Assembly (NCBI GenBank): GCA_964511435.1
Contig: CAZEFH010000001.1
Span: 9,346-73,345 of the forward strand
Direction of reading: 5' to 3'
DNA length: 64,000 bases
Source of the DNA: an uncultured Candidatus Saccharibacteria bacterium
Lineage (GTDB): Bacteria > Patescibacteriota > CPR2 > UBA1875 > CAIMLA01
Within the stretch, counting starts at the first letter, position 1; the number at the start of each line of letters is the position of its first letter. Under the pieces are notes generated by a model. It ran no database searches. It saw only the letters and a program-made list of their open reading frames with translations, and was not told the DNA's origin. Shown here one piece after another: positions 27,832 to 58,886 of this stretch. The position numbers were made by a program, and so were the translations under genes.

Positions 27832-28443
27832 TTAGACTCCTAGCTCCTCAAAAACTGACTTTCCCTTCTTCTTTGGTGAATATGCTTCTTTCGCAAGCGA
27901 AACCCCAAGCTCTAGTGCCTTGCGGTTCAAGCTCTTTAACTGTGGCTTTTTTAGATATTTTGTGGCAAAATGCTTGTCCATTGCTGTTTCCACTATTTTC
28001 TGGTCTAGGATTTTCATCTCTGATACTATTGCGCCCATCAAAATCACGTTAAAAACCTGTGGTACAAGCTTATCTTTTGCAAGAGAAGTCGCCGGTACCG
28101 CCAGTTTCTCAGCGGCAACATTACGAAGCTCTGATCCGAGTATCGTATCGCTGTCATAGATATAAAGAGAAGTATCACCAATATATTCTTGTACTCGATG
28201 AATCGCCCGATCGCGTAAAACAACTATGATATCTGCAGTTGAGAATTTCGGAAACCCGATAACGCCTTTACTTATTTGGAGAAATCCTAAAGAAACACCA
28301 CCACGCTGCTCCACACCATAGTTGGGCATATACGAAACATTAAGACCAGCAACAAAAGCTGCCTCCGCCAAAATATGAGAAATCGCCTGGACGCCTTGAC
28401 CTCCCTCGCCGGCAATAAGAACTCTATATACTGCTTTATCCAC
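27832..28443 (-). CDS. porC: Pyruvate/2-oxoacid:ferredoxin oxidoreductase gamma subunit
   Basis: IAGEGGQGVQ...PNYGVEQRGG pattern of POR gamma. Confidence 0.8.
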   Translation of the reverse strand: MDKAVYRVLIAGEGGQGVQAISHILAEAAFVAGLNVSYMPNYGVEQRGGVSLGFLQISKGVIGFPKFSTADIIVVLRDRAIHRVQEYIGDTSLYIYDSDTILGSELRNVAAEKLAVPATSLAKDKLVPQVFNVILMGAIVSEMKILDQKIVETAMDKHFATKYLKKPQLKSLNRKALELGVSLAKEAYSPKKKGKSVFEELGV

Positions 28444-29155
28444 GAAGTACCCCCACAGGATAAATTTCCTCTAATTTCTTTGAGAACTCTATGGTTGCAG
28501 CAGCGTCCGTTTTCCAATTTGTCGGACAATATGAAACAATCTCGACCAAGGAAAAATTTCCTGCCAGCTGTGCCTGAATCGCCTTTTTCAAAGTATTTTT
28601 GAGGCCAATAATGTTGTTCACACTAGCTCGCGCGATAAATGCCTTTTCTGATGCCACATTTAGTAGTAGTTCGGGGCCATAGATTGGCTTATCAGCCGTA
28701 AATTTTCCCTCCGGTGTCGTATCAGTCACTTCATGCGAGAAAGTTGTCGGGCTTGACTGTCCCCCCGTCATCGCGTAAACGCTATTATTTACCCCAATGA
28801 TAGTCACGGGTTCATTTCGATGCGCTGTATGAATAAGACCCTGAAGGCCAATAGCATAAAGACCGCCATCCCCCGCGATACCAATAGCGACACTTTCCTT
28901 CTGCGCCCTCTTATATCCCGAAACCATGGGTGTCACTCGACCATGATGAGATTGAGCCGTATCAAGATTATAATAATTCCAAGCTAGTAGATTACAGCCG
29001 ATATCGATCCCAAATACTGTTCTCGGAGCAATCTCAAGCTCGTCAATCACTTCTCCAAGAGTCTTTAGAATGATGCCGTAGCCACATCCAGGACAGAAAT
29101 TACTTGGCTTACTAGTAGGCTTCACTACTTTAGGCATTCGTGGACCTTCCATCAC
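28436..29155 (-). CDS. porB: Pyruvate/2-oxoacid:ferredoxin oxidoreductase beta subunit (TPP-binding)
   Basis: NFCPGCGYGIIL, GIAGDGG TPP motif. Confidence 0.85.
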   Translation of the reverse strand: MMEGPRMPKVVKPTSKPSNFCPGCGYGIILKTLGEVIDELEIAPRTVFGIDIGCNLLAWNYYNLDTAQSHHGRVTPMVSGYKRAQKESVAIGIAGDGGLYAIGLQGLIHTAHRNEPVTIIGVNNSVYAMTGGQSSPTTFSHEVTDTTPEGKFTADKPIYGPELLLNVASEKAFIARASVNNIIGLKNTLKKAIQAQLAGNFSLVEIVSYCPTNWKTDAAATIEFSKKLEEIYPVGVLRG

Positions 29156-30225
29156 AGTGCCTCCCGTATCTTTTCTTCTATATCCTCAACCGTAATACCT
29201 TCTGCTGGCTTGTAAAGGCGAATAAACTCCGCATCTGTCGCTTGAGCCAATGTCTCGCGAACAATGCGGCCAAAGTGTCCGGCACTACTCTCAGCAATAA
29301 TGATTTTCTTCGCTTTTGCAACTGACTTTATCGCTCCCGCTGTATCAAATGGGCGCATTGTGATTGGGCGAAATAGTCCTACCTTCGCCCCCGCTTTGCG
29401 CATTTCAGCCACCGCAACCTTGGCAGCATAACCTACGGTGCCCCAAGCAAAAACAACTATGTCAGCATCAGCCGTGCGAAAACTTTCCGATTCAATTATT
29501 TGAGGAGAGACCTTAGCAAATTCGGAAAATAGATCTCCTAAGTGTTCCACTAATTCTTCTTCAATCGAGAAGCAATTGCGCATATTTTTGATATCACCAT
29601 TCAGAAAATATGGTTCTGAATCAGCAACTTCCACCTTCTCTGACAAGTCTACTGGGGCAAGAGTCTTCGAGAGATAGCCGTCACCAAGCACAATTACAGG
29701 AAAACGGTATTCCCAAGCTACGTCAAAGGCCTTCTGCATATAGTGGTAGAGTTCAGAAACAGTTGCTGGGGCATAGATAATACGAATACCTTCTCCGTTA
29801 CCACCGAAACGTGCAAGGGTCAGTTCTTGTTGGGAATAGATGACTGTACCCGTAGATGGACCGCCGCGCTGGCCGACATACATTACAAATGGTAGTCGAT
29901 ATGACTCCGCTACGGAGAGTGGGTCCTGCATCAGAACATGCCCAATACCGGCTGTAGCCGTCCAAGCTTTGCGGCCAGCAAGTAAGGCCCCTATAACAGC
30001 GAAGCCAGAAGCAGTTTCGTCTTCCATCTGCATGAATTCTAGTTTAGAATTCTTTGCCGCAACCTTCGCCCAGCCAGAAAGAACCTCAGTTGTTGGCGTA
30101 ATCGGATAGCCTGCAAAAAAGTCAGCTCCCGCTGCGAGTGCACCACGAAGAACGACTTCATTTCCGGTCAGTAGTTCTTTTTTATTCATGGTAATAGGTT
30201 TTTTAGCCAACTTCCCTCCAGACAA
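29152..30225 (-). CDS. porA: Pyruvate/2-oxoacid:ferredoxin oxidoreductase alpha subunit
   Basis: GNEVVLRGALAAGADFFAGYPITPTTE, MQMEDETASGFAVIGA, POR-alpha family. Confidence 0.85.
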   Translation of the reverse strand: MSGGKLAKKPITMNKKELLTGNEVVLRGALAAGADFFAGYPITPTTEVLSGWAKVAAKNSKLEFMQMEDETASGFAVIGALLAGRKAWTATAGIGHVLMQDPLSVAESYRLPFVMYVGQRGGPSTGTVIYSQQELTLARFGGNGEGIRIIYAPATVSELYHYMQKAFDVAWEYRFPVIVLGDGYLSKTLAPVDLSEKVEVADSEPYFLNGDIKNMRNCFSIEEELVEHLGDLFSEFAKVSPQIIESESFRTADADIVVFAWGTVGYAAKVAVAEMRKAGAKVGLFRPITMRPFDTAGAIKSVAKAKKIIIAESSAGHFGRIVRETLAQATDAEFIRLYKPAEGITVEDIEEKIREAL

Positions 30226-30240
30226 TGTATCTATTCTACT

Positions 30241-32319
30241 CTACTTCTTCTCTGGCTCAAAGACCATCTTTGCGTCCAGAGCGAGAATTCCATGATGATC
30301 AGTGTTCACTCGTATTGGATTTATATCAACTTCACGAATGTGAGGAAAATCCACCATCAATTGGGACAAACCCGAGATAGCCACAGCCAAGGCGTCGATA
30401 TCAAATTTCTCCCCTTTACGGTAACCGTGAAGAATCGCATTGTAGCGAATACCCTCTATCATCTCTCGTGCCCTTTCAATGCTAACAGGCGCTAGACCTA
30501 GGCGGAAATCCTTGAAAAGCTCGATATAGACACCCCCCAAACCAAACATGGTAATTGGTCCAAATAGTGGGTCTCTCTTCGCGCCTATCGCCACTTCCAC
30601 TGTCGAACGGACCATGTGATAAACTGTTACACCCAATATCTTCGCTTTTGGATGATGTTTCTTGGCATTCTTTAACACTTCCTGATATGACTGCCTCAAA
30701 TCATCCTCGTTCTCAATTGCCAGCTTGATAGCGCCTACTTCTGTTTTGTGTAGTATATCTGGTGAAGTTACCTTCAGTACCACTGGATAACCAATCTCTT
30801 TTGCTGCTTTCACTGCCTGGGTCGCATTTGTCGTTAACTTCGACCCTGCCATCGGAATGCCATAAGCCATAAATATTTTGGCAATGTCGGCGTCATCTAG
30901 CAGCTTATAAGCCTTAATTACTCTCCCTGCGATGTCCTTTCTCACCTTGGTATAAGTCTCTATTTTTGGCTTCTGATAGTAATATTTAGCGTATGCAGCA
31001 AGTTTATCAAGTGCTAGTATTGCCCGCTCAGGGTATAGAAATGTACAAATTTTGTGCTCAGAAAGATACCTTCTCGCATCTTCTAGTTTTGGACCACCAA
31101 TGAGGACAACCGCCATATCTCCGGACGAATACTTTGTAATAACCTCGGCAATTTTAACCGCATCAGTAGATGATTGCGGTGTCAAAATTACTAGCTTAAG
31201 ATCACTATCATGTTTACCCTTTAGCATTTTAAAGGCAAGTTCGAAAGTTCTACTAGTCGCATCTCCTAGGAGATCTATTGGGTTCTCTACAACAGCTCCG
31301 AATGGTAGCACCTTCGTTAGGGTTTCTTTTTGAATAGCAGTAGGAGTAAAGAAGCTTAGATTTTTGGAGGCGGAGACCGCGTCAGTGGCCATCACCGCAG
31401 GACCACCGGCGTTTGTAAGAATTAGTAACTTGTCGCCTTTTGGTAGCTTCATGTCAGCAAAGACAGTCGCAAGTTCGAACAGGTCTTCAAGTGTCTCGGC
31501 CCTAATTATTCCTGACTCTCTCAGAACCGTCTCAATGATTACATCATCAGCTGCTAGTGCACCTGTGTGTGAGCCGGCAATCTGTTCACCGCGTAAGCTA
31601 CGACCAGCCTTAAGTAAGATAAATGGTTTTCTTCTGGTCACTTTTCTCGATATCTCGAGAAAACGTTCCGGATCACTGATAGACTCAAGATATCCGATAA
31701 CGACATCGGTAGCCTTGTCGTTCGCAAAATATTCAAGGACATCTGCTTCATTAATGTCCATCTTATTCCCAAGACTAACAAAGTGAGAAAAGCCGACATT
31801 GTTGCCGTTTGCCCAATCTAGTATTGCCGTACAAGTCGCCCCACTCTGTGAAAGCACAGCGATGTTTCGTTTTTTAGGCATATTAACGGCAAAAGAAGCA
31901 TTTAATTTCGTCGTAGGATCTATGATACCAAGACAGTTCGGACCTAAAACTCGAATGCCATAGGTGGCAGCAATCTTAGCCACTTTCTGCTGAAGTTCTA
32001 CTCCCCTGGGACCGGCTTCAGCGAAACCAGCAGAAATAATAACCACACTACGAATGCGCTTTTTGCCACAATCTAGCATCACCTCGGGGACTAAAGCCGC
32101 AGGAACGACTATTACCGCGAGATCAATAAGAGAACTAATGTCAGCTAGTTTCTGGTATGTTTTGTACCCTAAAATATTGTCTTCATGTAAATTAATAGGG
32201 AATATTCGGCCCTGGTAGCCACCATCGATGACATTCTTAAGAACAGCAAACCCAATCTTGTTTGGATTTGCCGAAGCGCCAATAATAGCAACCGACCGCG
32301 GCTGAAAAAAGTCTTTCAA
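30241..32319 (-). CDS. Acetyl-CoA synthetase (ADP-forming), fused alpha/beta (CoA-binding plus ATP-grasp)
   Basis: N-terminal succinyl-CoA-synthetase-like CoA-binding fold (PRSVAIIGASANPNKIGF) and C-terminal ATP-grasp; 692 aa. Confidence 0.8.
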   Translation of the reverse strand: MKDFFQPRSVAIIGASANPNKIGFAVLKNVIDGGYQGRIFPINLHEDNILGYKTYQKLADISSLIDLAVIVVPAALVPEVMLDCGKKRIRSVVIISAGFAEAGPRGVELQQKVAKIAATYGIRVLGPNCLGIIDPTTKLNASFAVNMPKKRNIAVLSQSGATCTAILDWANGNNVGFSHFVSLGNKMDINEADVLEYFANDKATDVVIGYLESISDPERFLEISRKVTRRKPFILLKAGRSLRGEQIAGSHTGALAADDVIIETVLRESGIIRAETLEDLFELATVFADMKLPKGDKLLILTNAGGPAVMATDAVSASKNLSFFTPTAIQKETLTKVLPFGAVVENPIDLLGDATSRTFELAFKMLKGKHDSDLKLVILTPQSSTDAVKIAEVITKYSSGDMAVVLIGGPKLEDARRYLSEHKICTFLYPERAILALDKLAAYAKYYYQKPKIETYTKVRKDIAGRVIKAYKLLDDADIAKIFMAYGIPMAGSKLTTNATQAVKAAKEIGYPVVLKVTSPDILHKTEVGAIKLAIENEDDLRQSYQEVLKNAKKHHPKAKILGVTVYHMVRSTVEVAIGAKRDPLFGPITMFGLGGVYIELFKDFRLGLAPVSIERAREMIEGIRYNAILHGYRKGEKFDIDALAVAISGLSQLMVDFPHIREVDINPIRVNTDHHGILALDAKMVFEPEKK

Positions 32320-46851: not shown

Positions 46852-49338
46852 TTACTTGCCTATTTTCAACATTTTCGAGGCGGATGTCCTAGTGCCACCG
46901 ACTAACTTTGTAAGTTCAAGTACAACTAGGAGACTGGCGGCGATACCGCCCACCATCCAGATGAGATGCCAGGGGAGTTCTCCAAAACGAAATACTTTTA
47001 CCAGAAAGCTAGTACTAGTCGCTAGTACTAGCATCACGTATGTAAATATAACTACGGCAATAAGCGCCCTGTTGTCATTACGAGGCAGCTTCGTAAGTAA
47101 TAATTCTTTCTTAGATAAATTTACCAGTATAAGTACTACATTTATTGTAACTAGCAGAGCAAAAACAAAGGTTCTCGCCGTATTTTCACCGACAACCGGT
47201 AGCAACTGCAGATACGATACCGTAAGCACAACACCACTCACGAACCCTAGTAAAATCGGTGATAGTAGATTGCGGAGAGATACTATGCGCTCACTAACTG
47301 TACGAGGCCTTCGATCCATGATGTCACGATCTTCAGTGTCCGATTCAAAGACTACCGTACAGGTCGGATCAATCACAAACTCCAGAAAGACTATGTGCGC
47401 GGGGAAGAGTACCAGCGGTAGTCCTAGAAGTACCGGTACTACTGAAAGAATAACGATTGGGATATGTACGGCGATGAGATAACCTATGGCCTTCTGGAGA
47501 TTGTCATAGATTCTCCGACCTAGTTTGACTCCTCCAACTATAGAATTGAAATTGTCGTCGAGAAGTACGATACTAGCCGCCTCGCGAGCGACATCAGTCC
47601 CCCTTTGGCCCATGGCAATACCAATATGAGCCGCTTTTAGAGCTGGAGCATCATTGACACCGTCTCCAGTCATTGCCACCACCTCCCCCATCTCTTTCAG
47701 GGTCTGGACAATCAGTAACTTCTGAGTAGGCACTACACGACTAAAAACAGATGTCTTCTCGAGTATCTGTCTCCTCTTTGCATCACTAGCTTTCTCAAAC
47801 TCCGCTCCACTGACCACACCCTCAGTCTCGATGCCTATCTGCTTGGCTATCGAAAATGCAGTTTCGTGATAATCGCCGGTGATCATGATTATCCGGAGCC
47901 CTGCTCGTTGTGCTAACACAACCGATTCGGGGACACCACGACGGATTGGGTCCGCCATCGCCGCAAGTCCTACGAATTCAAACTTAATATCATGACGATT
48001 CTCGGGTAATTCTGACCCTTGATATTCTGCTTTCGCTACTGCCAGTACCCGGAAACCATCATGAGCAAAGCTAGCCACACTAGTAAGAATCTGCTTCTTC
48101 TCCTTGACACTCAGATGACAAAGGTCGATTACCGCTTCTGCCGCCCCCTTCAGGGCTACCTCATAGTCTTCCCCGAAACGATATCCGTGAGCGACACAGA
48201 GAGATTCTGGCGTAACCGGATATTCTTTCACAAGTTCATAATGGTCATAAAGCTTATCAAGATCGAGGTATTTCTTCCCTTCAACCACAAATGCCGATTC
48301 CATGGGATCAAACGGCTTCTTTTGTGATGCTAGGAGACCGTATTTAATTACTTCTTTATCGGCAGTAAAGTCGTTCAGCATCACCTCTCCGCCTACTGGG
48401 ACTATTGCCTCGATTTTCATCCTGTTTTCAGTCAACGTGCCTGTCTTATCAACACAGAGTACTGTTGCGGCACCAAGAGTCTCTATCGAAGCAGAGCGAC
48501 GTGTCAGGACATTATGTCTTGCTAGCCTCCAGGCCCCCATCGTCATAAATAGTAGCAGAACGATTGGAAACTCTTCTGGCAGAATTCCGATAGCAAGAGT
48601 TAGCCCAGAAAGAATCCCCTGTATCAGATTGCCACGAGTTACTGTATAGACGGCTGCCAGAACAATACAGAGTAGTATTCCGATAATCGCAAGATATCGC
48701 ACCAGGGTAGTAATTTCTTTTTGCAGCAAGGTCTTTTCTATCTCTATTGATTTTAGCGACTTACCAATCTTCCCCAGCTCAGTCTGAACCCCTGTCGCCT
48801 GAACCACCGCTACGCCGTGTCCACTGACCACCATAGAACCAGAGAAAACTTTGTTCTGGTCCGATACATTCTTCTCGACCGCTACTGATTCTCCCGTCAG
48901 TAGTGATTCGTCTACTTGAAGATTAACTGCTTCCAGCAGTCTCGCATCTGCCGGTACTCTATCCCCTTCTACTAGATGGACAATATCTCCGACCACCACT
49001 TCGCGTCCAGGAATACGAACTTCGCGACCACCGCGTACAACGATTGCTCGCGGACTCGAGAGCTGAGTCAGGGCCTGTAGCGATTTTTCGCTCTTGCGTT
49101 CTTGATAGAGCGATATCGCCACCACTCCTACAATCGATAGTAGCAGCAGTAGCGCTTCGGCGACATCACCGAGAAATATATATAGTAGACCTGCTGCAAG
49201 AAGCAGAGAAATCATCGGTTCTTTGATTATTTCTAGTAGAAAATACCCCAAAGTTTTGGGTTTTGCGGTAGGAAGTTCGTTGTACCCATTTATCTTCAGT
49301 AATCGTGCCGCCTCAGCGGTCGTAAGGCCTGTCTGCAT
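46852..49338 (-). CDS. P-type cation-transporting ATPase (type II, Ca2+/Mg2+-like)
   Basis: Phosphorylation motif CVDKTGTLTEN, TGES-like actuator (TGESVAV), MITGDYHETA, GDGVNDAPALK; 10 TM topology. Confidence 0.85.
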   Translation of the reverse strand: MQTGLTTAEAARLLKINGYNELPTAKPKTLGYFLLEIIKEPMISLLLAAGLLYIFLGDVAEALLLLLSIVGVVAISLYQERKSEKSLQALTQLSSPRAIVVRGGREVRIPGREVVVGDIVHLVEGDRVPADARLLEAVNLQVDESLLTGESVAVEKNVSDQNKVFSGSMVVSGHGVAVVQATGVQTELGKIGKSLKSIEIEKTLLQKEITTLVRYLAIIGILLCIVLAAVYTVTRGNLIQGILSGLTLAIGILPEEFPIVLLLFMTMGAWRLARHNVLTRRSASIETLGAATVLCVDKTGTLTENRMKIEAIVPVGGEVMLNDFTADKEVIKYGLLASQKKPFDPMESAFVVEGKKYLDLDKLYDHYELVKEYPVTPESLCVAHGYRFGEDYEVALKGAAEAVIDLCHLSVKEKKQILTSVASFAHDGFRVLAVAKAEYQGSELPENRHDIKFEFVGLAAMADPIRRGVPESVVLAQRAGLRIIMITGDYHETAFSIAKQIGIETEGVVSGAEFEKASDAKRRQILEKTSVFSRVVPTQKLLIVQTLKEMGEVVAMTGDGVNDAPALKAAHIGIAMGQRGTDVAREAASIVLLDDNFNSIVGGVKLGRRIYDNLQKAIGYLIAVHIPIVILSVVPVLLGLPLVLFPAHIVFLEFVIDPTCTVVFESDTEDRDIMDRRPRTVSERIVSLRNLLSPILLGFVSGVVLTVSYLQLLPVVGENTARTFVFALLVTINVVLILVNLSKKELLLTKLPRNDNRALIAVVIFTYVMLVLATSTSFLVKVFRFGELPWHLIWMVGGIAASLLVVLELTKLVGGTRTSASKMLKIGK

Positions 49339-49344
49339 CAGTAA

Positions 49345-51576
49345 CTATTCCTTTGCTGATACAACTTCACTTGCTGTCGGTGGTGTTGCTGCAATAGTTT
49401 CTGTTGTCTTGGGCGCTGGTGCGCTCGCTAGCTTGGGCATAGAGCGCTTCTTTAGCGGGAATCTAAAACCAAAGATAGAGCCCTTACCCTCAGTGGAGTC
49501 AAAAATGATTTCTCCACCATGATCCTCGACTACACGCTTGGCGAGGTAGATACCTAGACCAGTTCCGTCTGGGCGAGCAGTGCGGGCATTATCAGCACGG
49601 AAGAATTTCTCAAAGAGGTGATCTCTTTGTGCCTTCGGTACTCCGATGCCGGTATCATGAACTTCGTAGATAAAGTCGTCTTTGTCATGACGAAGGACTA
49701 CGGTCACACCACCTGTATTGGTATAGTAGATGGCATTGTCCATAAAGTTCATCACTACCTGACGAATCTTCGTCTCATCAGCATAGATATGTGGCACCTT
49801 ACCCTTCTTCTCTACCTTAAGATAAAGCCCCTTCGCCTTGGCACTATTCGTCAGCTGCTTCATCTCCTCTTCCACTACCTTCTCGATGTCTACCTCTTTT
49901 GGTTCAAGGAAGAAACGGCCGGTATCCATACGAGAAACGTTCAGAAGGTCGTTGATAAGACCGACCATTCTATTTGCACCGCTGTAGGCCTCGTTGATGA
50001 AGTCGTACTGGCTCACCTTGATATCGCCCGCGTCACCCTCGAGAAGCATCGACAGATAGCCCTTAATGGCGGTCAGCGGCGTACGGAGTTGATGAGATGC
50101 CATCGAGATAAACTCGTCTTTGGCATGGTCGAGCTCCATCAGCTGCTCATTCTTCTGTTTCAATCTGTAAGTAGCTCTCTTAACTTCCTGACGAAGGGTG
50201 GTGTTGAAGCGACTAATTTCCTCATATGCCTTGGCATTCTCAACTGCAATCGCCAGCTCTGGTCCGAGAATTTCTAGCACACTTAGGTCCTGTTGTGAGT
50301 ACATATCGCCCGAGCTCTTCTCACCAAGGAGCATAACGCCGATAATCTCGCCCTCAGTCTTCAGTGGTATTGCTAGATTTGCCTCATATTCAGAGAGAAG
50401 GTGCTTCATGCGAGAGCCTTCCTCGAGGTCGTCATAGTGTATTACGCCATCATGAGTCATCTTGAGCACATCACGAGGATCGACATCCGGCGTCTTCTTG
50501 TAACCCGTCGCCTGGACGGTGTACATCCGAGTATCGTCCTTGATGAGTGCAAAGAGTACTCGACTAGCCTTCAGATTCTTGGTAATGATGTCGCCAACCT
50601 TGTATAGTAGCTCAATAAGGACGATGGTCGAGCCCATCGTATTTGAAAGCTCAGAGAGCAGCTCATCTTGATCATACTGATTGCGGAAAAAGATCTTGTC
50701 AGTAGCCTTGGTAATCCAGGTTTTAAGCGGCTGAAAAAGAAATACCATAATAACAGCGATGACGGTACGCATTGCGCCCTCGGCAAAATTGAATCCTTGC
50801 ATCTGCCCCGGGAAAAACAACATTTCTAGTCCTAGAACTGAAAGGGCGTAAAATGAAGCCAAAGAAGAAATTAATAGAATATATGCCAGGGATCTAGCAA
50901 CAACAAGCCTAATATCAAGAAAATGGTGTCTAATTATTGCGTAAGCAGAAAAACCTACAAGAATCATTGAACTTTGAGCATCAAATGGCACTGCGGGTGT
51001 TATATTAAATAAAGGCAAAATAAGCCCTATCAATATAGCTACAGCTGCATAAAATGATAATCCGAGCAAGATTATCGTTAACTGAGTCCTTTTTACGCCT
51101 CTTGAACCTAATCTTGCCTTTATTACAAGATAAAACAGATATAATAAGGCTACAAAAACTGCCACGCTGAACGCATTAAAAAGTGGACCTGTACCAAAAC
51201 TATAACCTGCAGCACCACCTTTTTCTAACGAGCTAATAATCGTCCCATCGATAAATGGAACTACAAACAATACAAGCGCAAGAAGGTAGAATAATACAAT
51301 CCCAAAAATCTTATTCTTATTTTCTAACAAAAATAAGAACCAAGGAACTAACAAAGGAGCTATAACTCCACCAGTTGCATAAACGAGTTTAAACGCAAGT
51401 AAATTTTTATCAAACACAAAGAAATAAAAATTTGCTAAAGCCCAAATCGCTGAGGCAAAGGAAAAAATAAGAAAAGTAATATTTACGGCTCTCTTTGGAT
51501 TCTTTAAAAAAACCAAAAGACCTAAAACTATGTTTGTTATCGCGGCTAAAATTGAAAGTGAATTTAAGGAATCCAT
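49345..51576 (-). CDS. Sensor histidine kinase with N-terminal 7-8 TM sensing domain, GAF-like linker, HisKA and HATPase_c
   Basis: Multi-TM N-terminus, H-box LDHAKDEFISMASHQLRTPLTAIKGY, N/G boxes (NAIYYT, HDTGIGV, GTGLGIYL). Confidence 0.85.
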   Translation of the reverse strand: MDSLNSLSILAAITNIVLGLLVFLKNPKRAVNITFLIFSFASAIWALANFYFFVFDKNLLAFKLVYATGGVIAPLLVPWFLFLLENKNKIFGIVLFYLLALVLFVVPFIDGTIISSLEKGGAAGYSFGTGPLFNAFSVAVFVALLYLFYLVIKARLGSRGVKRTQLTIILLGLSFYAAVAILIGLILPLFNITPAVPFDAQSSMILVGFSAYAIIRHHFLDIRLVVARSLAYILLISSLASFYALSVLGLEMLFFPGQMQGFNFAEGAMRTVIAVIMVFLFQPLKTWITKATDKIFFRNQYDQDELLSELSNTMGSTIVLIELLYKVGDIITKNLKASRVLFALIKDDTRMYTVQATGYKKTPDVDPRDVLKMTHDGVIHYDDLEEGSRMKHLLSEYEANLAIPLKTEGEIIGVMLLGEKSSGDMYSQQDLSVLEILGPELAIAVENAKAYEEISRFNTTLRQEVKRATYRLKQKNEQLMELDHAKDEFISMASHQLRTPLTAIKGYLSMLLEGDAGDIKVSQYDFINEAYSGANRMVGLINDLLNVSRMDTGRFFLEPKEVDIEKVVEEEMKQLTNSAKAKGLYLKVEKKGKVPHIYADETKIRQVVMNFMDNAIYYTNTGGVTVVLRHDKDDFIYEVHDTGIGVPKAQRDHLFEKFFRADNARTARPDGTGLGIYLAKRVVEDHGGEIIFDSTEGKGSIFGFRFPLKKRSMPKLASAPAPKTTETIAATPPTASEVVSAKE

Positions 51577-51577
51577 T

Positions 51578-52837
51578 TTAGATCAATCCGAGCTCTTTTC
51601 CAATTTCCTCGCAAGCCTTAATATATGCATCAAGATGTTTCTTTGTATGTGTTACCATAACGATAATTCTAAATCGACTCTCTCCCTCAGGAACGGCAGG
51701 CCATCGGACGATTGGTGACAGGAATTTCCGTTCAAAAAGTTTATTTCCGAACTCTACTCCCTTCTTCTCTGGACCAACCATTAGAGCCACTGAAGGAATA
51801 TTGTCATTACCGACTATCGTAAAGCCCCTTTTCCTTAATTCATCTCTAAGATACTGAGATTTTTCAAAAAGTTCTTTACGAAGCTTTTGACCCTTTTTAA
51901 TTTGCTTAACTGATTCAATCATCCCTCCTGACATCGAACAAGTCAAAGATGAAGATAAGATTGACGATCTTGTTGCAATTCTTAAGTAGTCAATTAACTC
52001 TTTTTTGCCGCAAAGATAGCCACCAGTACCTCCCATAGCCTTATCCATACAACCCATAAGTATGTCGATATCTTTTACGCAATGGAAATGCTCTGGAGTT
52101 CCCCCACCATTTTCGCCTAAGATACCAATGCTATGCGCGTCATCAAGCATTATTTTTGCATCATACTTCTTTGCAACTTTAATTAATGCTTTTAAGTCTG
52201 TTATTTCTCCATCAAGACTAAATACGCCCTCCGTGATGATTAACTTGTTCTGTATCTTATTATACTTCTGCAGTTTTTCTTCTAGATCAGCAAAGTCATT
52301 GTGTTTAAAAACAACCTTTTTGGCTGCACTTAATTTACAACCGTCAACAATTGACCCGTGATTATACTCATCACTGAAAATAACTCCACTGCCTTTTTTA
52401 TAAGGAAGACCCATCATAAATTCATCCATAACAGCTCGAATGACTCCGACATTAGCCATATATCCAGTAGGTAATGTCAGGCAGTCTTCCGTTCCCGTTA
52501 AGGACGCTATTTCTCGTTCTAGTTCTTCAATAATGTCAACGTTGCCGCTAATTACTCGCGAACCACCTGGACCCATCCCATATTTTTCAATTGCTGCAAT
52601 ACCGGCCTTCTTAACGGCAGAATTCTCAGACATTCCCAAGTAATTGTTTGCACAAAATATGGTAAACTTCTCACCATTAATTATACAATCTGGCTCGTTT
52701 ACCCCGTCTGAAATTACTGGGAACATTGGGTAAAGTTCCGTGTCTTTGAGATAATCGACCAAACGATATGCATTTTCGAAATGCTTCTTCTCTTTATTTA
52801 ATTTAGAACCAGCAAACAGCTTAATTTCTTTAAGCAT
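51578..52837 (-). CDS. Alpha-oxoamine synthase family PLP enzyme (serine palmitoyltransferase / CqsA / BioF / Kbl class)
   Basis: FCANNYLG, SGNVDIIEELE, DDAHSIG, PLP-lysine loop GCMDKAMGGTGGYL; about 60-aa N-terminal extension as in SPT/CqsA-type members; stop abuts the HK start. Confidence 0.8.
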   Translation of the reverse strand: MLKEIKLFAGSKLNKEKKHFENAYRLVDYLKDTELYPMFPVISDGVNEPDCIINGEKFTIFCANNYLGMSENSAVKKAGIAAIEKYGMGPGGSRVISGNVDIIEELEREIASLTGTEDCLTLPTGYMANVGVIRAVMDEFMMGLPYKKGSGVIFSDEYNHGSIVDGCKLSAAKKVVFKHNDFADLEEKLQKYNKIQNKLIITEGVFSLDGEITDLKALIKVAKKYDAKIMLDDAHSIGILGENGGGTPEHFHCVKDIDILMGCMDKAMGGTGGYLCGKKELIDYLRIATRSSILSSSLTCSMSGGMIESVKQIKKGQKLRKELFEKSQYLRDELRKRGFTIVGNDNIPSVALMVGPEKKGVEFGNKLFERKFLSPIVRWPAVPEGESRFRIIVMVTHTKKHLDAYIKACEEIGKELGLI

Positions 52838-52910
52838 CTTTCCTCCAGAATTATTTACTTAATTCAATTCTAGCACCGAAAAGCCAGCCGTTACAACCAC
52901 TCTACAATTA

Positions 52911-54656
52911 TCAGTTGTACATTTCGTCTATAAGTGCGGCCTGTTTCTCGAGTACGACTTGCCTCTTGAGCGAGAGCTTCGGTGTAAACTCCCCTGTTTC
53001 GATACTGAAGGGCTCTGTGAGCAAGCGGAACTTACGGACTCGTTCGATGGATGAAAGCCGATGTGTCTTTTCTATCGCCTCACCAGCGATGAGGTCGATA
53101 ACTTCCTGCATCTTGGCAAGCTTGTGGTTGCCCTTGATACCAAAGCGCTCTGAAAGCTTGGCATAGTCAGGTACGATAAGGGCAGCGATATGCTTTCGCC
53201 CATCCCCCATCACAAACGCTTGTTCGATATATTCGCTGCTCTCTAGGGCGGTCTCAATCGGTACAGGGGCCACCTTCTTGCCCGTTGTTAGAACGATAAG
53301 ATCCTTTTTGCGCCCAGAAATGGTCAGAAATCCTTCACCGTCGATATAGCCGAGGTCACCAGTCTTAAACCAGCCATCCTTTGTAAAAGCATCTGCAGTA
53401 TCACTTTTACGGATGTAGCCCTGAGTAATCGTAGGACCTTTTACTAATATCTCCCCTTCGCGAGTGAACCTTACCTTGACGTTATAGATTGGGTCACCGA
53501 CGGTACCGAAGCGATACTTTGCGAGCTGATTGACGGCGATAATCGGTGAAGTTTCTGTTAGGCCGTATCCCTCTATAACAATCATGTCTAGCTTCTCAAA
53601 GAAGCGACCAATCTTTGCAGGTAGACTTGCTCCCCCGGAGACGAAGAAACGGATGTTGCCGCCAAATATGGCTTTTACTTTCGAGAAAACAATCTTGTCA
53701 AAGACGGGGTAAAATATACTACCCTTCTTTGTCGCAAAAGCTAGCTTAAAGATAAGTTTTGTTACTGGACTCGCCTTGGCCTTTGCCATTACCTTTTCAT
53801 ATATCTTCTCAAATAGGCGCGGCACCGCGAGGACAATCGTGGGCTGATACTCCAGGATTTCCTGAGTCAAGGTATCGAGACTGAGACAGTAGCCGATGGC
53901 GGCACCGGCATAAATCGGAATGTAGTAGCCGGCTGTACGCTCAAAAACATGCGAGAGCGGTAGCACTGAGAAGAACTTGTCTGTTGGTAAGATCCATATA
54001 GACCTCGTTGTGCCCACAATATCCTGAATAAAGTTCTCATGGGTTAAGAGTACGCCCTTAAGATGTCCGGTAGTACCAGAGGTATAGATAATACTAGCCA
54101 GGTCACTTGGTTTTACTGCTAGGGCTCCTTTCACTATACTCGCCTGGTCTTCTTCGGTCAGTTTCACGTCGTCAATGTGATTTCTGAAGTAGTGCAGCTT
54201 CGAGAGCTTGCTCTCCTTGATTTTTGAATAGGAAAATAAATGACTCACCGTTGGCATATTATCGGCAATCGCCAGTAATTTATCCTCAATATAGCGCTCA
54301 GAGAAAAAGATTAGTTTCGGTTTCGTCTCCTTTACAATTTCGGCTATTTGCTCCGGTGAGAGCACCTCATGGACAGGCACCGTCACTCCCCCGAGAAGTT
54401 GCATCGCCAGGTCCGTAATTACCCACTCGGGACGATTCTCGGAAATAATCAGTGATTTGTCACCAGACTTGAACCCGAGCTCGGTCAGAGCCTGCGCTAA
54501 CTGCATTACCTTATTTTTTAGTTCAAAATACGAGAGACTTTCGTAGTGGTGCCCTTTTTTATACCGCAAGGCTTCATTGTCCGCCCTCAGCTCTGCTGAA
54601 GTCAGAAACATATCACCTAAGTTTATCGGAACCCATTGCTTACTCTTTTTTTCCAT
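52911..54656 (-). CDS. Long-chain fatty-acid--CoA (or --ACP) ligase, AMP-dependent synthetase family
   Basis: AMP-binding motif IIYTSGTTGHLKGVLLTHENF, TGDLGYIDGEG, 581 aa. Confidence 0.85.
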   Translation of the reverse strand: MEKKSKQWVPINLGDMFLTSAELRADNEALRYKKGHHYESLSYFELKNKVMQLAQALTELGFKSGDKSLIISENRPEWVITDLAMQLLGGVTVPVHEVLSPEQIAEIVKETKPKLIFFSERYIEDKLLAIADNMPTVSHLFSYSKIKESKLSKLHYFRNHIDDVKLTEEDQASIVKGALAVKPSDLASIIYTSGTTGHLKGVLLTHENFIQDIVGTTRSIWILPTDKFFSVLPLSHVFERTAGYYIPIYAGAAIGYCLSLDTLTQEILEYQPTIVLAVPRLFEKIYEKVMAKAKASPVTKLIFKLAFATKKGSIFYPVFDKIVFSKVKAIFGGNIRFFVSGGASLPAKIGRFFEKLDMIVIEGYGLTETSPIIAVNQLAKYRFGTVGDPIYNVKVRFTREGEILVKGPTITQGYIRKSDTADAFTKDGWFKTGDLGYIDGEGFLTISGRKKDLIVLTTGKKVAPVPIETALESSEYIEQAFVMGDGRKHIAALIVPDYAKLSERFGIKGNHKLAKMQEVIDLIAGEAIEKTHRLSSIERVRKFRLLTEPFSIETGEFTPKLSLKRQVVLEKQAALIDEMYN

Positions 54657-54718
54657 ATCTATCGCCTCTTAACCTGTAAATAATATCAAAGCGAAGCGCA
54701 AATGTCACTTTGACTGTC

Positions 54719-56137
54719 TTACTCTGAACCAAATAAGTCCTTCGCGATTGTCAGGAGAGATTCCTTTGAGGTGATTTTGGAACCGATAGGCAACTTTAGA
54801 CTCCCCTCATAACCATAGTTTGCAGTGAGTGAAAAACTATAGCTAGTAAGAACGGGCAAATTTTGAGTCAATCCTTCTTCTTCATCGATATTCTCTAGTC
54901 TGGTATTATTCTGCATCGCCATTGTCTTTGCCGTACCGCCAAGACTAATGACTCGTCTGCTTTTAGGTGAAACTATAAAGCTCAAGCTTAAGACTTCTTC
55001 GTCCTGAATAAGCTTATCTTCTTCTCCTGTGATTATCTTTGATATACTTCTTAGACTGTCGGCGTTCAAAACCAGGCGATATTTTTCGCACTTAACACCG
55101 TCAATATCTTCCTGGCCCTCAAATCTGATATTATTCGCTATTTCATTATTACTTGCTGGATTTGTAATAATCCCCTTGAGACCCTCGAGGTCAGAGAAGA
55201 TAAAGTCCCAGAAACCAGAAATATTACTGTACTGTGCAAATTTCCTTACACTAGTATCACCGTTTCTTAGAAACGCCGAGTCCTTAGTTTTTAAATACAA
55301 AAGGCCAAAGGTACCCGTATCACCACTTGCTTCTAACTTTGCATTTTTGCTTGAATCAACATCAAGTACAAAGTTACCGCTTTGTCCGTTGCCAGTAAAC
55401 TCAAATTTGTACTCAGACTGTTCTAGGTTGCTAATATTTTTGAGAGCATCAGAAAGTAGCTGTGCCCGCTGATTTTTACCATAAGAAATATAGCCGTAGT
55501 AGCCACCAACACCAAGAACTAGCACAATTGCGGCTGCAAAAACATATTTTAGATAACTAAATATTGGCTGCGAGGCCTTCTTCCTAGTAGGCTCACCAGG
55601 ACCAGAAACCCCACTAACAACTGGGTTTTTTATGGTACTGCCGTCCACAGCAACTCTCGGTGCTGGCTGTGGCGACTCAGGATAAAGCGGGTCCGGTACC
55701 ATTGCTGGGTTAGGAGTAGCCGCTACTTGTGGCATCGGGGAATAAGTTCTTTCCGGTGGCTCAAAAGTTTGAGGGCTAATCTCCGGCGCTGGTTCTGAAA
55801 CTTGGGCACTTGTCTCATTGGCAGAAACCGCTGATTCTGACATGAACATATCAGTCGGCTCGGCGTGATATGTCGATGCTACCTGCCCCAAGGCCTCACT
55901 GTTATTCGTCTGCGCCTGATAGATTTGGTTTGTTCCAATATCAAATTCAGCATTTTCTTCTCTAGGCGAAATTTGGTCGGAAAATGAAGGCACAGATACA
56001 GCTGGTGAGCTCTCTGTCTGGGCTTCTGCTTTCCCTCCGATATTGATGTCCTCAGGACGTACAATCGGTGGCATACTTGTGTCTTCGGGCTGACCACTAG
56101 TAACGGCATCAAGCTGATTGTCTAGATTATCTCCCAT
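54719..56137 (-). CDS. Hypothetical bitopic protein: Pro-rich N-terminal region, one TM, about 270-aa extracytoplasmic domain
   Basis: TM helix FAAAIVLVLGVGGYYGYI; Pro/Ser-rich N-terminus; lies between ABC exporter and acyl-CoA ligase genes. Confidence 0.5.
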   Translation of the reverse strand: MGDNLDNQLDAVTSGQPEDTSMPPIVRPEDINIGGKAEAQTESSPAVSVPSFSDQISPREENAEFDIGTNQIYQAQTNNSEALGQVASTYHAEPTDMFMSESAVSANETSAQVSEPAPEISPQTFEPPERTYSPMPQVAATPNPAMVPDPLYPESPQPAPRVAVDGSTIKNPVVSGVSGPGEPTRKKASQPIFSYLKYVFAAAIVLVLGVGGYYGYISYGKNQRAQLLSDALKNISNLEQSEYKFEFTGNGQSGNFVLDVDSSKNAKLEASGDTGTFGLLYLKTKDSAFLRNGDTSVRKFAQYSNISGFWDFIFSDLEGLKGIITNPASNNEIANNIRFEGQEDIDGVKCEKYRLVLNADSLRSISKIITGEEDKLIQDEEVLSLSFIVSPKSRRVISLGGTAKTMAMQNNTRLENIDEEEGLTQNLPVLTSYSFSLTANYGYEGSLKLPIGSKITSKESLLTIAKDLFGSE

Positions 56138-56155
56138 GTTCCCCTCCCCCCGGCA

Positions 56156-56983
56156 CTATACTGACAGGTCTCTTCTAACAAATCTGACCAGTGCCAGAAA
56201 GCCGAATACTGCTGCAATCCCAAGATAAAATACTAAGAAGTTGTCTACGAATGCACCTTTAACCAAGTTGACTCCCCCACCAAAGTAGTGAAAGATAGAG
56301 AAATACTGAATATCTACATAGTCTTTATTTAGTCCAGCGACAATATTCGCAATGTAACTAAGTAAAATAACTCCTACCGCCAGAAAAGAAGCTTTACTCT
56401 TTTCGGAAAATATTGAAGACGAAAAAGCAGCGAAGCTATAAACCGCAAGTGAAAAACATAGCCCAGAAATAGCAAGGTAGGAAAAATCGATACCAGTAAG
56501 ACTTATCTTATGTAGTGCGGCAAGTAAGTAAACCGAGTAGACTGTTACAAACGTAAATACTGCAAGCATAGCCACGCCGGCAAGGTAACGCTCTAGGAAT
56601 AACCTGGCTCTAGATACAGGAAGTGAGATAACTTGCTCAATCGTTCCTTTCTCCACTTCGCCCGCGATCATGCCATTAGCAAGCGATATTGCGAGAATGA
56701 TGACTATTACCGGCCAGATAAAGCTGTATTGTTCACTCGCAACAAAAACCTGAAACTTAGTAAAGTTCAGCATGGATGGGTCGAGACCGAAAACTGTCCA
56801 TATTTCCTTCGGATAACTATCGAGGAGAGTAGTAATTTTATCTTGTGCAAGGTTCCCGAAGGTCGGGAAAAGTGCTACATACATCTCGAGAAATACTACC
56901 GTTGAGGCGATATATAGCAGTAAGGATTTATAACGATCTTTGATAGTACGAAAAAAAATTGCAAACATCCTAACACCTCTCAT
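56156..56983 (-). CDS. ABC-2 type transporter permease
   Basis: Six TM helices, size and placement immediately downstream of the ABC ATPase (overlap 56970-56983). Confidence 0.7.
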   Translation of the reverse strand: MRGVRMFAIFFRTIKDRYKSLLLYIASTVVFLEMYVALFPTFGNLAQDKITTLLDSYPKEIWTVFGLDPSMLNFTKFQVFVASEQYSFIWPVIVIILAISLANGMIAGEVEKGTIEQVISLPVSRARLFLERYLAGVAMLAVFTFVTVYSVYLLAALHKISLTGIDFSYLAISGLCFSLAVYSFAAFSSSIFSEKSKASFLAVGVILLSYIANIVAGLNKDYVDIQYFSIFHYFGGGVNLVKGAFVDNFLVFYLGIAAVFGFLALVRFVRRDLSV

Positions 56984-57872
56984 AAAACTTCATGAACACA
57001 TCTTCGAGATTCGCATGTGTTACTTCGATATCAATCAACTTATGTTTGGAAACTGCGCCCATAACCTGATTAATGTCACCGCTCGCGGTGATTACAAGAC
57101 CGTCAGAAACTTCCTCTACTGAATCGACGCCCGCAAGTTCGAACTCTTTCTTTGTAAATTTATCTGCGAAACGTACCTCGATACGATGAAGTTTCTTGTC
57201 ACCTAAGTCTTTGATATTCTCTACCGCTGCCAGCTTGCCCTCTTTAATAATGGCGACTCTATCACAAAGCTTTTCTACCTCTGGTAGATTATGAGAGGAA
57301 ATAAAGATTGTCGTTCCCTTTTTCTTCATATCCAGAAGAATTTCGTAGATTGCATTCTGAAGCAAGGGGTCGAGACCGACTGTCGGCTCATCCATAATCA
57401 CTACCTTCGGACTATTCATCAGGGCGAGAATAAGACCAAGCTTCTGCTTGTTACCACTAGAGAGGTGTCGAAACTTCGCCAGTGGGTTGAAGTCAAGCTT
57501 CTTTATCAGTTCCTTCACACTATCCGAATTACCACGAATACTTTCGAAAAAGTGAATATGTTCCCAGCCTGTCCAGTTATCGTATAGTTTTACATTGCCT
57601 GGCAGATAGCCGATATGTCTCTTTTCTTTGATACCACTCTCAAAAAGCTTCTCTCCCAGAACTGTAACAGTTCCGCTGGTGGGTTGATTGAAACCCATCA
57701 GACAGCGAATTGTAGTTGTTTTTCCGGCTCCATTCGGTCCTAGAAAGCCAAATATTTCACCTTCTTTAATTTCGAAGCTGATGCCATCTACGGCGTGAAG
57801 CTTACCAAACTGTTTTTTGAGGTCTCGTACTTCAATAACGTTTTTCATATTTACCATTTTAGGCCTGAGCAA
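56970..57872 (-). CDS. ABC transporter ATP-binding protein
   Basis: Walker A GPNGAGKTT, signature LSSGNKQKLGL, Walker B VVIMDEPTVGLD; true start probably one of the internal Mets (MVNMKNVIEV). Confidence 0.9.
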   Translation of the reverse strand: MLRPKMVNMKNVIEVRDLKKQFGKLHAVDGISFEIKEGEIFGFLGPNGAGKTTTIRCLMGFNQPTSGTVTVLGEKLFESGIKEKRHIGYLPGNVKLYDNWTGWEHIHFFESIRGNSDSVKELIKKLDFNPLAKFRHLSSGNKQKLGLILALMNSPKVVIMDEPTVGLDPLLQNAIYEILLDMKKKGTTIFISSHNLPEVEKLCDRVAIIKEGKLAAVENIKDLGDKKLHRIEVRFADKFTKKEFELAGVDSVEEVSDGLVITASGDINQVMGAVSKHKLIDIEVTHANLEDVFMKFYERC

Positions 57873-57887
57873 ATATTTTGTCCATAA

Positions 57888-58405
57888 TCAAAAATGACCC
57901 TATGGGTCATGAGTTAGTAAGGTTAACGCGGGGAGATCGCGACGGTGTCGGGCAGCAAACCCAACCAGTTCTTCGTCGCGATCTCCCACGAAATCCGCAT
58001 GCGCCCCTTCCTCGAGTATGGGGTCGCGCCTGTCGCGGGTGGTTTCCAACCAATGGAGTCAGGAGCGCTATTGCGACTGGCTCGGAAGGCCTTATAGCCA
58101 CCACTTAAACGGCAAACATGCAGATCTTGCGTCACGGGAGTGACTAGAGCTTTGCTTCAACTAGGCGACTTCGTCTCATCAGGCTCACCTGACGAGCTAC
58201 CCCGTCCCTTACGTTTCGCTGTCTCCAATCCCGTCCCGTATCTCACAGCAGTTTCGCTCTTGGCGGTTGCTCACAATCCTCTTTACGAGGACGCCTCAGA
58301 CCATGAATCGTCTGGACAGTGTAAGCTATTAAGGTTTCACCCCCGCGGTAGGCTATTCGCTGCTGTTAGAATCTAGTTGTCAAACTGTCGTCTTAGACGA
58401 CAATG
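57888..58405 (-). ncRNA. Candidate large structured non-coding RNA or long regulatory leader (class unknown), GC-rich
   Basis: Minus-strand consensus promoter (TTGACA 58435-58440, 17-nt spacer, TATAAT 58412-58417) and intrinsic terminator (stem ATGACCC/GGGTCAT 57895-57911 followed by a T-run on the minus strand). The region is much more G+C-rich than flanks, full of long stems (e.g. 13-bp GGGAGATCGCGACG/CGTCGCGATCTCCC), and carries only R/P-rich pseudo-ORFs. Confidence 0.5.
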
Positions 58406-58411
58406 TTCAAG

Positions 58412-58440
58412 ATTATACACGAATATCGTATATTTGTCAA
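58412..58440 (-). promoter_or_regulatory. Sigma70 consensus promoter (minus strand) driving the GC-rich RNA / ABC operon
   Basis: Reverse complement reads TTGACA-aatatacgatattcgtg-TATAAT (17-nt spacer). Confidence 0.6.
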
Positions 58441-58452
58441 CACTTTTTTTAT

Positions 58453-58480
58453 TTGACACTGTCTACTCACAGTGTAAAAT
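58453..58480 (+). promoter_or_regulatory. Sigma70-like promoter for the receiver-domain gene, with a palindrome in the spacer
   Basis: TTGACA (58453-58458) - 16 nt - TAAAAT (58475-58480); spacer contains CACTGTCTACTCACAGTG inverted repeat; AGGAG RBS before the ATG at 58497. Confidence 0.55.
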
Positions 58481-58496
58481 GAAATTAGGAGATATT

Positions 58497-58886
58497 ATGG
58501 CAATCAAAGTTCTACTCGCAGAAGACGACATTCAGCTCGTCGATATGTATAGCCGCAAGTTTGCCCTGGACGGCTTCGAAGTCCGCCTCGCTGAAGATGG
58601 ACAGAAGGCAATCGACTTTCTGAAAGAGGGCTATGTACCCGATGTAGCTATACTTGACGTGATGATGCCAATGGTTGACGGCCTACAAGTACTTGCCTAT
58701 ATCAAGGACCAAAAGGAACTCGCTGACGTAATTGTCATTATGCTTACAAACCTCTCTGACGAAAAAACAGCTGAAAGAATCTACGAGCTTGGCGCCACTG
58801 AGTACTTAGTGAAAGCAGAGCTTACTCCCCTAGAAGTATCGGCCAAGGTGAAGGAATTAATCTCGTATTACAAAAAGGATAAATAA
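58497..58886 (+). CDS. Single-domain response regulator (CheY-like receiver only)
   Basis: VLLAEDDIQLVDMY...DVAILDVMMPMVDGLQVL...LTNLSDEK...EYLVKA; start set at the Met with RBS (58497) rather than the track start 58377. Confidence 0.8.
   Translation: MAIKVLLAEDDIQLVDMYSRKFALDGFEVRLAEDGQKAIDFLKEGYVPDVAILDVMMPMVDGLQVLAYIKDQKELADVIVIMLTNLSDEKTAERIYELGATEYLVKAELTPLEVSAKVKELISYYKKDK

Follow-up and report, generated by a model that had tools for sequence, protein, structure and literature searches.

Does an enzyme whose gene ends a single base ahead of a sensor kinase gene make the molecule that the kinase senses? This question is raised by a gene cluster in a stretch of 64,000 nucleotides (hereafter the window; contig CAZEFH010000001.1, positions 9,346 to 73,345) from an uncultured Candidatus Saccharibacteria bacterium. 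Genes for an ATP-binding cassette (ABC) ATPase, an ABC-2 permease, a 472-aa bitopic protein, an acyl-CoA ligase, an α-oxoamine synthase (AOS) and a sensor histidine kinase are lined up on its minus strand, and a receiver-only response regulator is encoded on the plus strand. The initial annotation of this DNA had read the adjacency of synthase and kinase as a make-and-sense signalling module and had offered two precedents, the CqsA/CqsS-type autoinducer systems and the bacterial sphingolipid clusters. An open reading frame (ORF) scan recovered the six minus-strand genes and the plus-strand receiver gene it had described. We give somewhat better than even chances to the reading that the locus encodes a synthase-receptor signalling module, in which the ligase would provide acyl-CoA, the AOS would convert it to an aminoketone, and the kinase would perceive this product through its HisKA_7TM domain and inform the receiver regulator.

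The synthase represents a separate clade

ORFs were scanned for domains with Pfam and NCBIfam, and all coordinates are window positions unless they are given with another locus. The AOS, presumably a PLP-dependent acyl-CoA:amino-acid C-acyltransferase, has the class-II aminotransferase fold. Its translation contains CANNYLG, within which lies the NNYLG motif of the initial annotation, as well as the GCMDKAMGG motif around the lysine that binds pyridoxal phosphate (PLP). The family alignment A1, built from 32 sequences, shows H160, D232, H235, K266, R388 and R390 as invariant catalytic residues and G262, C263, M264, D265, K266, G269-G273, C276 and G277 as invariant or almost so; the signature of the clade reads GCMDKAxGGTGGYLCG. 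Over 110 clusters in the database are 50-85% identical to the AOS, and the GCMDK motif is present in 110 of the top 120.

The protein stays below the cutoffs of the curated families. It scores 347 bits against the BioF model TIGR00858 (NCBIfam; cutoff 426), 336 and 278 bits against Kbl models (NF005394/TIGR01822; cutoffs 460 and 493), 312, 277 and 221 bits against three serine palmitoyltransferase (SPT) models (cutoffs 640 for the Bacteroidota type, 500 and 670), 278 bits against the ALAS model (cutoff 338.55) and 179 bits against the CqsA model NF005526 (cutoff 428), which ranks ninth among the AOS models. When the PDB was searched, the Thermus BioF/KBL and Coxiella Kbl enzymes came first with about 245 bits, followed by Sphingobacterium SPT (226), ALAS (173) and CqsA (68). 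The closest relatives, Kbl and the bifunctional BioF/KBL of Thermus (PDB 8s1y, 7poa), are co-linear with the AOS over residues 30-419 and share its catalytic residues. The window enzyme differs from them in carrying Asp rather than Ser or Gly directly before the PLP lysine and Cys rather than Thr three residues before it, and in a 9-residue insertion after the ANVG motif. The N-terminal extension, which had been taken as a mark of SPT- and CqsA-type enzymes, amounts to only some 12-17 residues relative to Kbl and BioF and is not diagnostic.

A neighbour-joining tree, in which BioF and Kbl of E. coli and some 70 further AOS were included (many of these with an SPT-like GTxSKS motif), unites the relatives of the window AOS in a single clade with a long stem. 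All branches of this clade but the deepest have Asp directly before the PLP lysine. Neither bio nor tdh genes were found beside any in-clade AOS, and the window lacks a Tdh homologue as well; bioB adjoins five AOS genes from outside the clade. The outcome named beforehand as speaking against a signalling role was robust clustering with BioF or Kbl together with cognate biotin or threonine genes; what we found instead are sub-cutoff scores and no such neighbours. Judged by its sequence, the AOS thus falls into a distinct clade outside the curated BioF, Kbl, SPT, ALAS and CqsA families. When a representative library was searched with the family profile, the hits gave no estimate of clade size, the core clade being collapsed at 50% identity. 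IMG/VR viral contigs contained no in-clade AOS, the best match there being 36% identical.

A 7TM sensor domain accompanies the synthase across phyla

Fetched loci were searched with a hidden Markov model (HMM) of the membrane domain of the kinase and scanned with Pfam. A metagenome scan based on the family alignment relied on back-translated patterns that proved generic, and 75 of 80 loci carried AOS of other types; this material was therefore used as negative control. A HisKA_7TM protein is encoded beside the AOS in 22 of 29 distinct in-clade loci, whereas the roughly 73 loci with AOS of other types have no such neighbour (Fisher p = 4e-17 on an earlier tally of 21/26 in-clade versus 0/73 out-of-clade loci). 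The adjacency is far beyond chance. Pairing is probable in two further loci, one fragmented (L018) and one cut by a contig end (L030). Beyond the neighbourhood of the AOS, no further 7TM protein was detected by the HMM, either in the window or in the fetched loci.

In the Patescibacteria-type loci, namely the window, L001, L003, L022, L031, L108, L112 and L114 as well as L029 and L032, the partner is a 7TM-GAF-HisKA-HATPase kinase; in the seven loci listed directly after the window, orthologous kinases follow the AOS. The pair is conserved in Patescibacteria at AOS identities from 39% to 85%, with only 0-3 nt between synthase and kinase in L003 and L114. The AOS of Actinomycetota (Thermoleophilia, Gaiellales and others) is 51-56% identical to that of the window, and its partners end in other output modules: 7TM-PAS-GAF-GGDEF-HD(GYP) in seven loci, a convergently transcribed hybrid kinase (7TM-PAS-PAS-HisKA-HATPase-REC) in three and an upstream 7TM-PAS-GGDEF protein in one. 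The arrangement of the genes also varies: the sensor gene may follow the AOS gene in the same orientation, converge with it or be located upstream. The constant element is the sensor domain, not the output. Such constancy, while output, gene orientation and phylum change, would be anticipated of a sensor that detects the synthase product or has some other functional tie to the synthase, and the make-and-sense reading of the initial annotation gains support from this conservation. Pairwise distances of synthases and of 7TM domains correlate (r = 0.88), which fits co-inheritance and is no proof of interaction.

Two loci contain a stand-alone HisKA_7TM gene upstream of the AOS gene (L108, 6880-7533, 217 aa; L112, 5248-5919, 223 aa) in addition to the downstream 7TM kinase, and in both a radical SAM gene follows the kinase gene.

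The sensor domain shows no detectable relation to that of CqsS

The kinase matches HisKA_7TM (PF16927) with 40.8 bits (gathering threshold 28.6) over profile positions 3-222 of 224, and a transmembrane (TM) scan predicts about nine helices in its membrane domain. HisKA (65 bits) and HATPase_c (91 bits) follow, the H-box SHQLRTPL is present, and the gene for a receiver-only protein lies on the opposite strand at a distance of 6.9 kb; by these features kinase and regulator are predicted to form a two-component system. The Actinomycetota partners score 176-196 bits against PF16927, and the Patescibacteria and Actinomycetota 7TM sets align co-linearly in hhalign over 209 columns (E = 6e-4). With the N-terminal 310 residues of the kinase, the sole NCBIfam match is a weak one to LIC10906.

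For comparison with CqsS, N-termini were collected from a protein database with a CqsS query sequence that was 100% identical to one entry. None of these real CqsS sequences matches PF16927. In hhalign, the Patescibacteria 7TM profile aligned with six CqsS N-termini over only 26 columns (E = 0.1), and the Actinomycetota profile gave no alignment at all. At the sequence level, the sensor domain has no detectable relation to the 6TM domain of CqsS. Of the comparisons suggested initially for the kinase N-terminus, that with HisKA_7TM gave a match and that with CqsS did not. Homology with CqsA is unsupported for the synthase as well, CqsA being the most distant AOS type.

Analogy with CqsA/CqsS and LqsA/LqsS

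The window locus nevertheless resembles these systems in its design. In CqsA/CqsS of Vibrio and LqsA/LqsS/LqsR of Legionella, too, an AOS gene adjoins the gene for a kinase with a loop-poor multi-TM ligand-binding part, and in these two systems this part binds the lipophilic product of the AOS (PMC4821796; PMC7567580). They also share the acyl-CoA substrate, which is predicted here, and a nearby response regulator that, like LqsR, has no DNA-binding domain. There are differences as well. The window synthase stands outside the lineage of CqsA (it scores 68 bits with CqsA structures and 245 with Kbl), its sensor is a HisKA_7TM domain with about nine TM helices plus GAF instead of a 6TM module, the kinase is not a hybrid, and a dedicated acyl-CoA ligase is encoded in the locus. 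CqsS-type modules have been reported only from Bacteroidetes, Chlorobia and Proteobacteria (PMC4821796), that is from phyla other than those considered here. Because the AOS stays below the CqsA cutoff and the sensor shows no detectable relation to CqsS, we classify the predicted module as analogous to CqsA/CqsS and not as a member of that family.

Adjacency of such genes in the candidate phyla radiation (CPR) has been noted before. In their survey, Bernard et al. (2020, mSystems; PMC7567580) listed 362 'CqsA homologs' in CPR, 51 of which adjoin kinases matching a CqsS HMM, and proposed complete α-hydroxyketone systems on the basis of families assigned by BLAST and HMM. One of their entries shares organism name and annotation with the Kerfeldbacteria protein P0043 of the AOS clade described here, and their CPR pairs are most likely loci of the same kind. 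In our analysis, both the CqsA and the CqsS assignment fail the membership tests; the partner is a HisKA_7TM protein, and linked pairs, with c-di-GMP outputs, also occur in Actinomycetota. The published CqsA/CqsS-like family assignment of these loci is corrected accordingly. In the literature searched, we found no mention of a separate synthase clade, a HisKA_7TM partner, a linkage in Actinomycetota with c-di-GMP outputs or the failure of the CqsA/CqsS assignment; searches for CPR combined with SPT or BioF, and for AOS combined with autoinducer and histidine kinase, likewise returned nothing.

Proposed mechanism and its weight

In the mechanism that we favour, the ligase would activate a fatty acid or another carboxylic acid to its CoA thioester, the acid probably being scavenged, as expected for a reduced genome. 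The PLP-dependent AOS would join the acyl-CoA with an amino acid under decarboxylation, yielding a hydrophobic α-amino ketone or a derivative thereof. Such a product would partition into the membrane, where the HisKA_7TM domain of the kinase could detect it, and the signal would then run through the GAF, dimerization/histidine phosphotransfer (DHp) and catalytic domains to the receiver-only regulator. The product may act between cells or within the producing cell. In Actinomycetota, the same pairing of synthase clade and sensor domain leads to domains that make and degrade c-di-GMP, or to hybrid kinases.

Several observations weigh against this interpretation. The synthase is nearest to Kbl and BioF/KBL (about 245 bits), and a role in small-molecule metabolism is hence compatible with its sequence. 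Five in-clade loci (L020, L113, L024, L027 and L028) have no receptor gene nearby. The ligase is missing from L031, L108, L112 and L114, the regulator has no output domain, and the correlation of synthase and sensor distances possibly reflects shared vertical descent. HisKA_7TM itself is not known to have a ligand and appears in PMC5847659 solely as a sensor domain.

Two of the loci without a kinase gene have features of their own. L020/L021 (AOS 68% identical) and L113 (56%) contain genes for phage-type integrases, helix-turn-helix regulators and restriction-enzyme-like proteins and many genes without Pfam match, and they look like mobile elements that carry the synthase alone.

More tentatively, we consider it possible that these loci belong to a signalling family that is independent of CqsA/CqsS and spans at least two phyla, in which a dedicated AOS clade makes a lipophilic aminoketone-type signal for a HisKA_7TM receptor and Patescibacteria build the signal from ligase-activated fatty acids. 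Should this hold, it would provide the first ligand class for the orphan HisKA_7TM domain, a sensor widespread in bacteria and archaea, and a second, independently evolved system of AOS synthase and multi-TM receptor beside CqsA/CqsS. It would also make chemical signalling testable in a concrete case within the Patescibacteria, most of which are uncultivated, with the same signal tied to c-di-GMP control in Actinomycetota. If, in addition, the acids were scavenged from a host, the signal could report host lipid supply or population density to the episymbiont.

Alternative explanations

In principle, the synthase-sensor linkage could also arise from membrane-lipid synthesis with homeostatic sensing. 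Ligase and AOS would then make a structural long-chain base or aminolipid, the 7TM domain would sense membrane composition or the lipid itself, and the ABC-2 transporter might export or flip the product. The ligase is indeed of the long-chain type, an ABC-2 exporter gene is adjacent in the window and in L001, PlsC-type acyltransferase genes adjoin the AOS gene in L003 and L020, and MTS- or CMAS-type methyltransferase genes stand beside the pair in eight Actinomycetota loci. Bacterial SPT clusters (Sphingomonas, Caulobacter, Bacteroidota) likewise place the AOS next to an acyl-activating enzyme, and Sphingobacterium SPT is among the best PDB matches (226 bits). However, the SPT models are missed by far, the GTFSKS motif (GTxSKS in SPT-type enzymes generally) is replaced by GCMDKA, and genes for ketosphinganine reductase, ceramide synthase and acyl carrier protein (ACP) were neither found among the window ORFs scanned nor annotated beside the AOS in those related loci for which gene annotation exists. 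The sphingolipid-cluster reading offered at the outset finds no support in these results. Moreover, acyltransferase and ABC genes occur only sporadically, and an enzyme for structural lipids would not be expected to keep the same sensor domain as its partner while the output takes four different forms. All in all, we regard a lipid-synthetic role as doubtful.

Improbable, in our view, is an ordinary metabolic function as a Kbl-like glycine C-acetyltransferase or a BioF-like enzyme, with a neighbouring sensor that only regulates the enzyme, or shares its operon, and does not sense the product. The best curated scores are those for BioF (347 bits) and Kbl (336 bits), the best PDB matches are Thermus BioF/KBL and Coxiella Kbl, and the organism has an acetyl-CoA pool through the pyruvate:ferredoxin oxidoreductase and ADP-forming acetyl-CoA synthetase encoded in the window. 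Yet both scores lie below cutoff, and tdh, bioA, bioB and bioD are absent from the window ORFs scanned and from the surroundings of in-clade AOS genes. In addition, the clade has its own active-site motif and the 9-residue insertion, the adjacent ligase and a natural ligase-ACP-AOS fusion (see below) point to acyl donors other than acetyl-CoA, and the tight linkage with 7TM proteins across phyla would be left unexplained.

Less probable still is a short aminoketone or pyrazine-type signal, for which the AOS would work as a reverse Kbl on short acyl-CoAs and the unstable aminoketone would condense to pyrazines or pyrazinones that are then sensed. This idea draws on the proximity of the clade to Kbl. 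The pyrazine-type autoinducers DPO and AI-3 derive from the Kbl substrate 2-amino-3-ketobutyrate. Known pyrazine receptors are soluble, though, and a ligase of long-chain type together with a multi-TM sensor is a better match for a lipophilic ligand. The known routes to pyrazines also start from Tdh, which was found neither in the window nor beside in-clade AOS genes. Pyrazine-type autoinducers are among the signal classes covered in PMC7567580.

An ALAS-like role, with the AOS feeding a cofactor of GAF or PAS domains, is unlikely given the sub-cutoff ALAS score and hybrid-kinase partners that have no GAF domain.

Genes for acyl activation, probable signal output and possible export

Returning to the proposed signalling module, the supply of its acyl substrate would fall to the ligase. 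This AMP-forming enzyme belongs to the ANL superfamily and is FadD11/long-chain-like; a PDB search with it returned generic ANL matches only. In L001 and L003, an orthologous gene precedes the AOS gene; in L022, its place is taken by genes for an unrelated AMP-ligase of 488 aa and an α/β hydrolase, so that four Patescibacteria-type loci have an acyl-activating enzyme upstream of the AOS. The ligase is also absent from the Actinomycetota loci and is a Patescibacteria-specific accessory. Patescibacteria are not known to synthesize fatty acids, and the best available reading is that the ligase supplies acyl-CoA where the organism cannot make acyl chains. Coupling of acyl activation to AOS with the DK motif is supported by P0151, a protein of 1096 aa from the representative library in which a FAAL-like AMP-binding domain, a phosphopantetheine carrier (PP-binding) domain and a DK-motif AOS are fused.

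The acyltransferases beside the AOS in L003 and L020 belong to PF01553. An MTS-type SAM methyltransferase of about 230-255 aa is encoded beside the AOS-7TM pair in the Actinomycetota loci L006, L008, L010, L011, L014, L016 and L017, and a CMAS-type methyltransferase takes a similar position in L107 (12166-13035). These acyltransferases and methyltransferases suggest tailoring of a lipid-like product.

A receiver-only regulator is adjacent in three of ten Patescibacteria-type loci and accompanies the pair in three lineages. In the lineage of the window, L001 carries a 129-aa orthologue (88% identical) in the same divergent position; L022 has a divergent gene for a 199-aa regulator, and in L114 the kinase gene is followed immediately by one for a receiver-only regulator of 149 aa. 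Inclusion of the regulator in the system, as initially annotated, is thus supported in part. In the window, the regulator is the probable phosphoacceptor of the kinase, judging from domain content and position. In L114 (10611-14825), the AOS-kinase-regulator operon is followed by a gene with EPSP-synthase fold (MurA-like) and adjoins the type IV pilus assembly genes pilM and pilN; this neighbourhood is a possible hint at the output of that regulator.

The ABC exporter and the 472-aa protein had also been counted as parts of the system. Both are syntenic only in L001, the relative with 85% AOS identity, and the ABC pair is absent from the other AOS-kinase loci. Conservation of the operon is therefore confirmed for the AOS-kinase pair and not for these genes; the ABC exporter probably adjoins the module without being part of it, and it is doubtful that either the ABC pair or the 472-aa protein belongs to the module. 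The latter consists of a Pro-rich N-terminal half, one TM helix (residues 192-210) and a 260-aa C-terminal domain. It has no match in Pfam, NCBIfam or PDB, a search of 5.8 billion proteins returned only the protein itself, and its single-sequence AlphaFold model (pLDDT 40) is unusable. A 551-aa protein in the same position in L001 is 26% identical.

Layout of the locus and its surroundings

The features of the locus are collected in Table 1. From the ABC ATPase gene to the kinase gene, the intergenic gaps measure -14, 18, 62, 73 and 1 nt; they slightly exceed the range of 0-60 nt given initially. The junction of synthase and kinase genes reads TAA-a-ATG. The closest public relative, GCA_041738615.1, is a Patescibacteria metagenome-assembled genome (L001) with full synteny, and the base composition of the cluster is unremarkable.

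Table 1 Features of the AOS-kinase locus in window coordinates
Feature	Position	Strand	Basis and remarks
ABC ATPase (ABC_tran)	56970-57872	minus	Pfam and NCBIfam; start in relatives corresponds to ATG 57857
ABC-2 permease (ABC2_membrane_2)	56156-56983	minus	Pfam and NCBIfam
472-aa bitopic protein	54719-56137	minus	No Pfam match; membership doubtful
Acyl-CoA ligase, 581 aa (AMP-binding, AMP-binding_C_3)	52911-54656	minus	Pfam and NCBIfam
α-Oxoamine synthase (AOS), 419 aa (Aminotran_1_2)	51578-52837	minus	Pfam; presumed signal synthase
Sensor histidine kinase, 743 aa (HisKA_7TM, GAF, HisKA, HATPase_c)	49345-51576	minus	Pfam; presumed receptor
Receiver-only response regulator, 129 aa (Response_reg only)	58498-58886	plus	Longest ORF from 58377
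Sigma-70-like promoter of the regulator gene, TTGACA-16-TAAAAT	58453-58480	plus	11/12 consensus
P-type cation ATPase (E1-E2 ATPase, Cation_ATPase N- and C-terminal domains)	46852-49338	minus	

The start codon of the regulator gene is most likely ATG 58498, which is preceded at a distance of 7 nt by AGGAG and yields the length of 129 aa found in relatives. Both of the back-to-back consensus promoters reported initially exist. The one on the minus strand (58440-58412, 12/12 match) precedes the ABC gene by about 540 nt, and between them the gap from regulator to ABC gene contains a 500-nt ORF-free stretch (57890-58405, minus strand) with a GC content above that of its surroundings and strong folding (minimum free energy -204.6 kcal/mol, z = -5.3). 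This stretch has the perfect sigma-70 promoter at 58440-58412 as its own and a terminator-like hairpin at 57910-57894. Because a folded ORF-free stretch and a terminator-like hairpin precede the ABC gene, this promoter is not simply the driver of the operon. A weaker promoter-like site (54708-54680) is located directly upstream of the ligase gene; together with the hairpin, it indicates that ligase, AOS and kinase genes may be transcribed separately from the ABC genes. The stretch is not conserved in L001, where a 188-aa ORF without Pfam match is found instead, and Rfam gives no match for it at E <= 1; it may be an RNA of unknown type or a mobile insert. With the same threshold, Rfam returned only tRNAs for the whole window and for 57800-58500.

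The gene for the P-type cation ATPase, which the initial annotation did not list, starts 6 nt past the stop codon of the kinase gene and is therefore probably co-transcribed with it; in L001 and L003, this position is not occupied by such a gene. No genes for biotin synthesis, threonine dehydrogenase, ACP or sphingolipid synthesis were found among the window ORFs scanned. Otherwise the window is devoted to housekeeping functions, with genes for glycolysis, aminoacyl-tRNA synthetases, cell-wall enzymes, pyruvate:ferredoxin oxidoreductase and ADP-forming acetyl-CoA synthetase. The latter two are located in a minus-strand block (28436-32319) upstream of the glycolytic gene run, with an ORF resembling the oxidoreductase alpha subunit at 29152-30225 and the synthetase gene at 30241-32319, and from their presence it follows that the organism keeps a pool of CoA thioesters.

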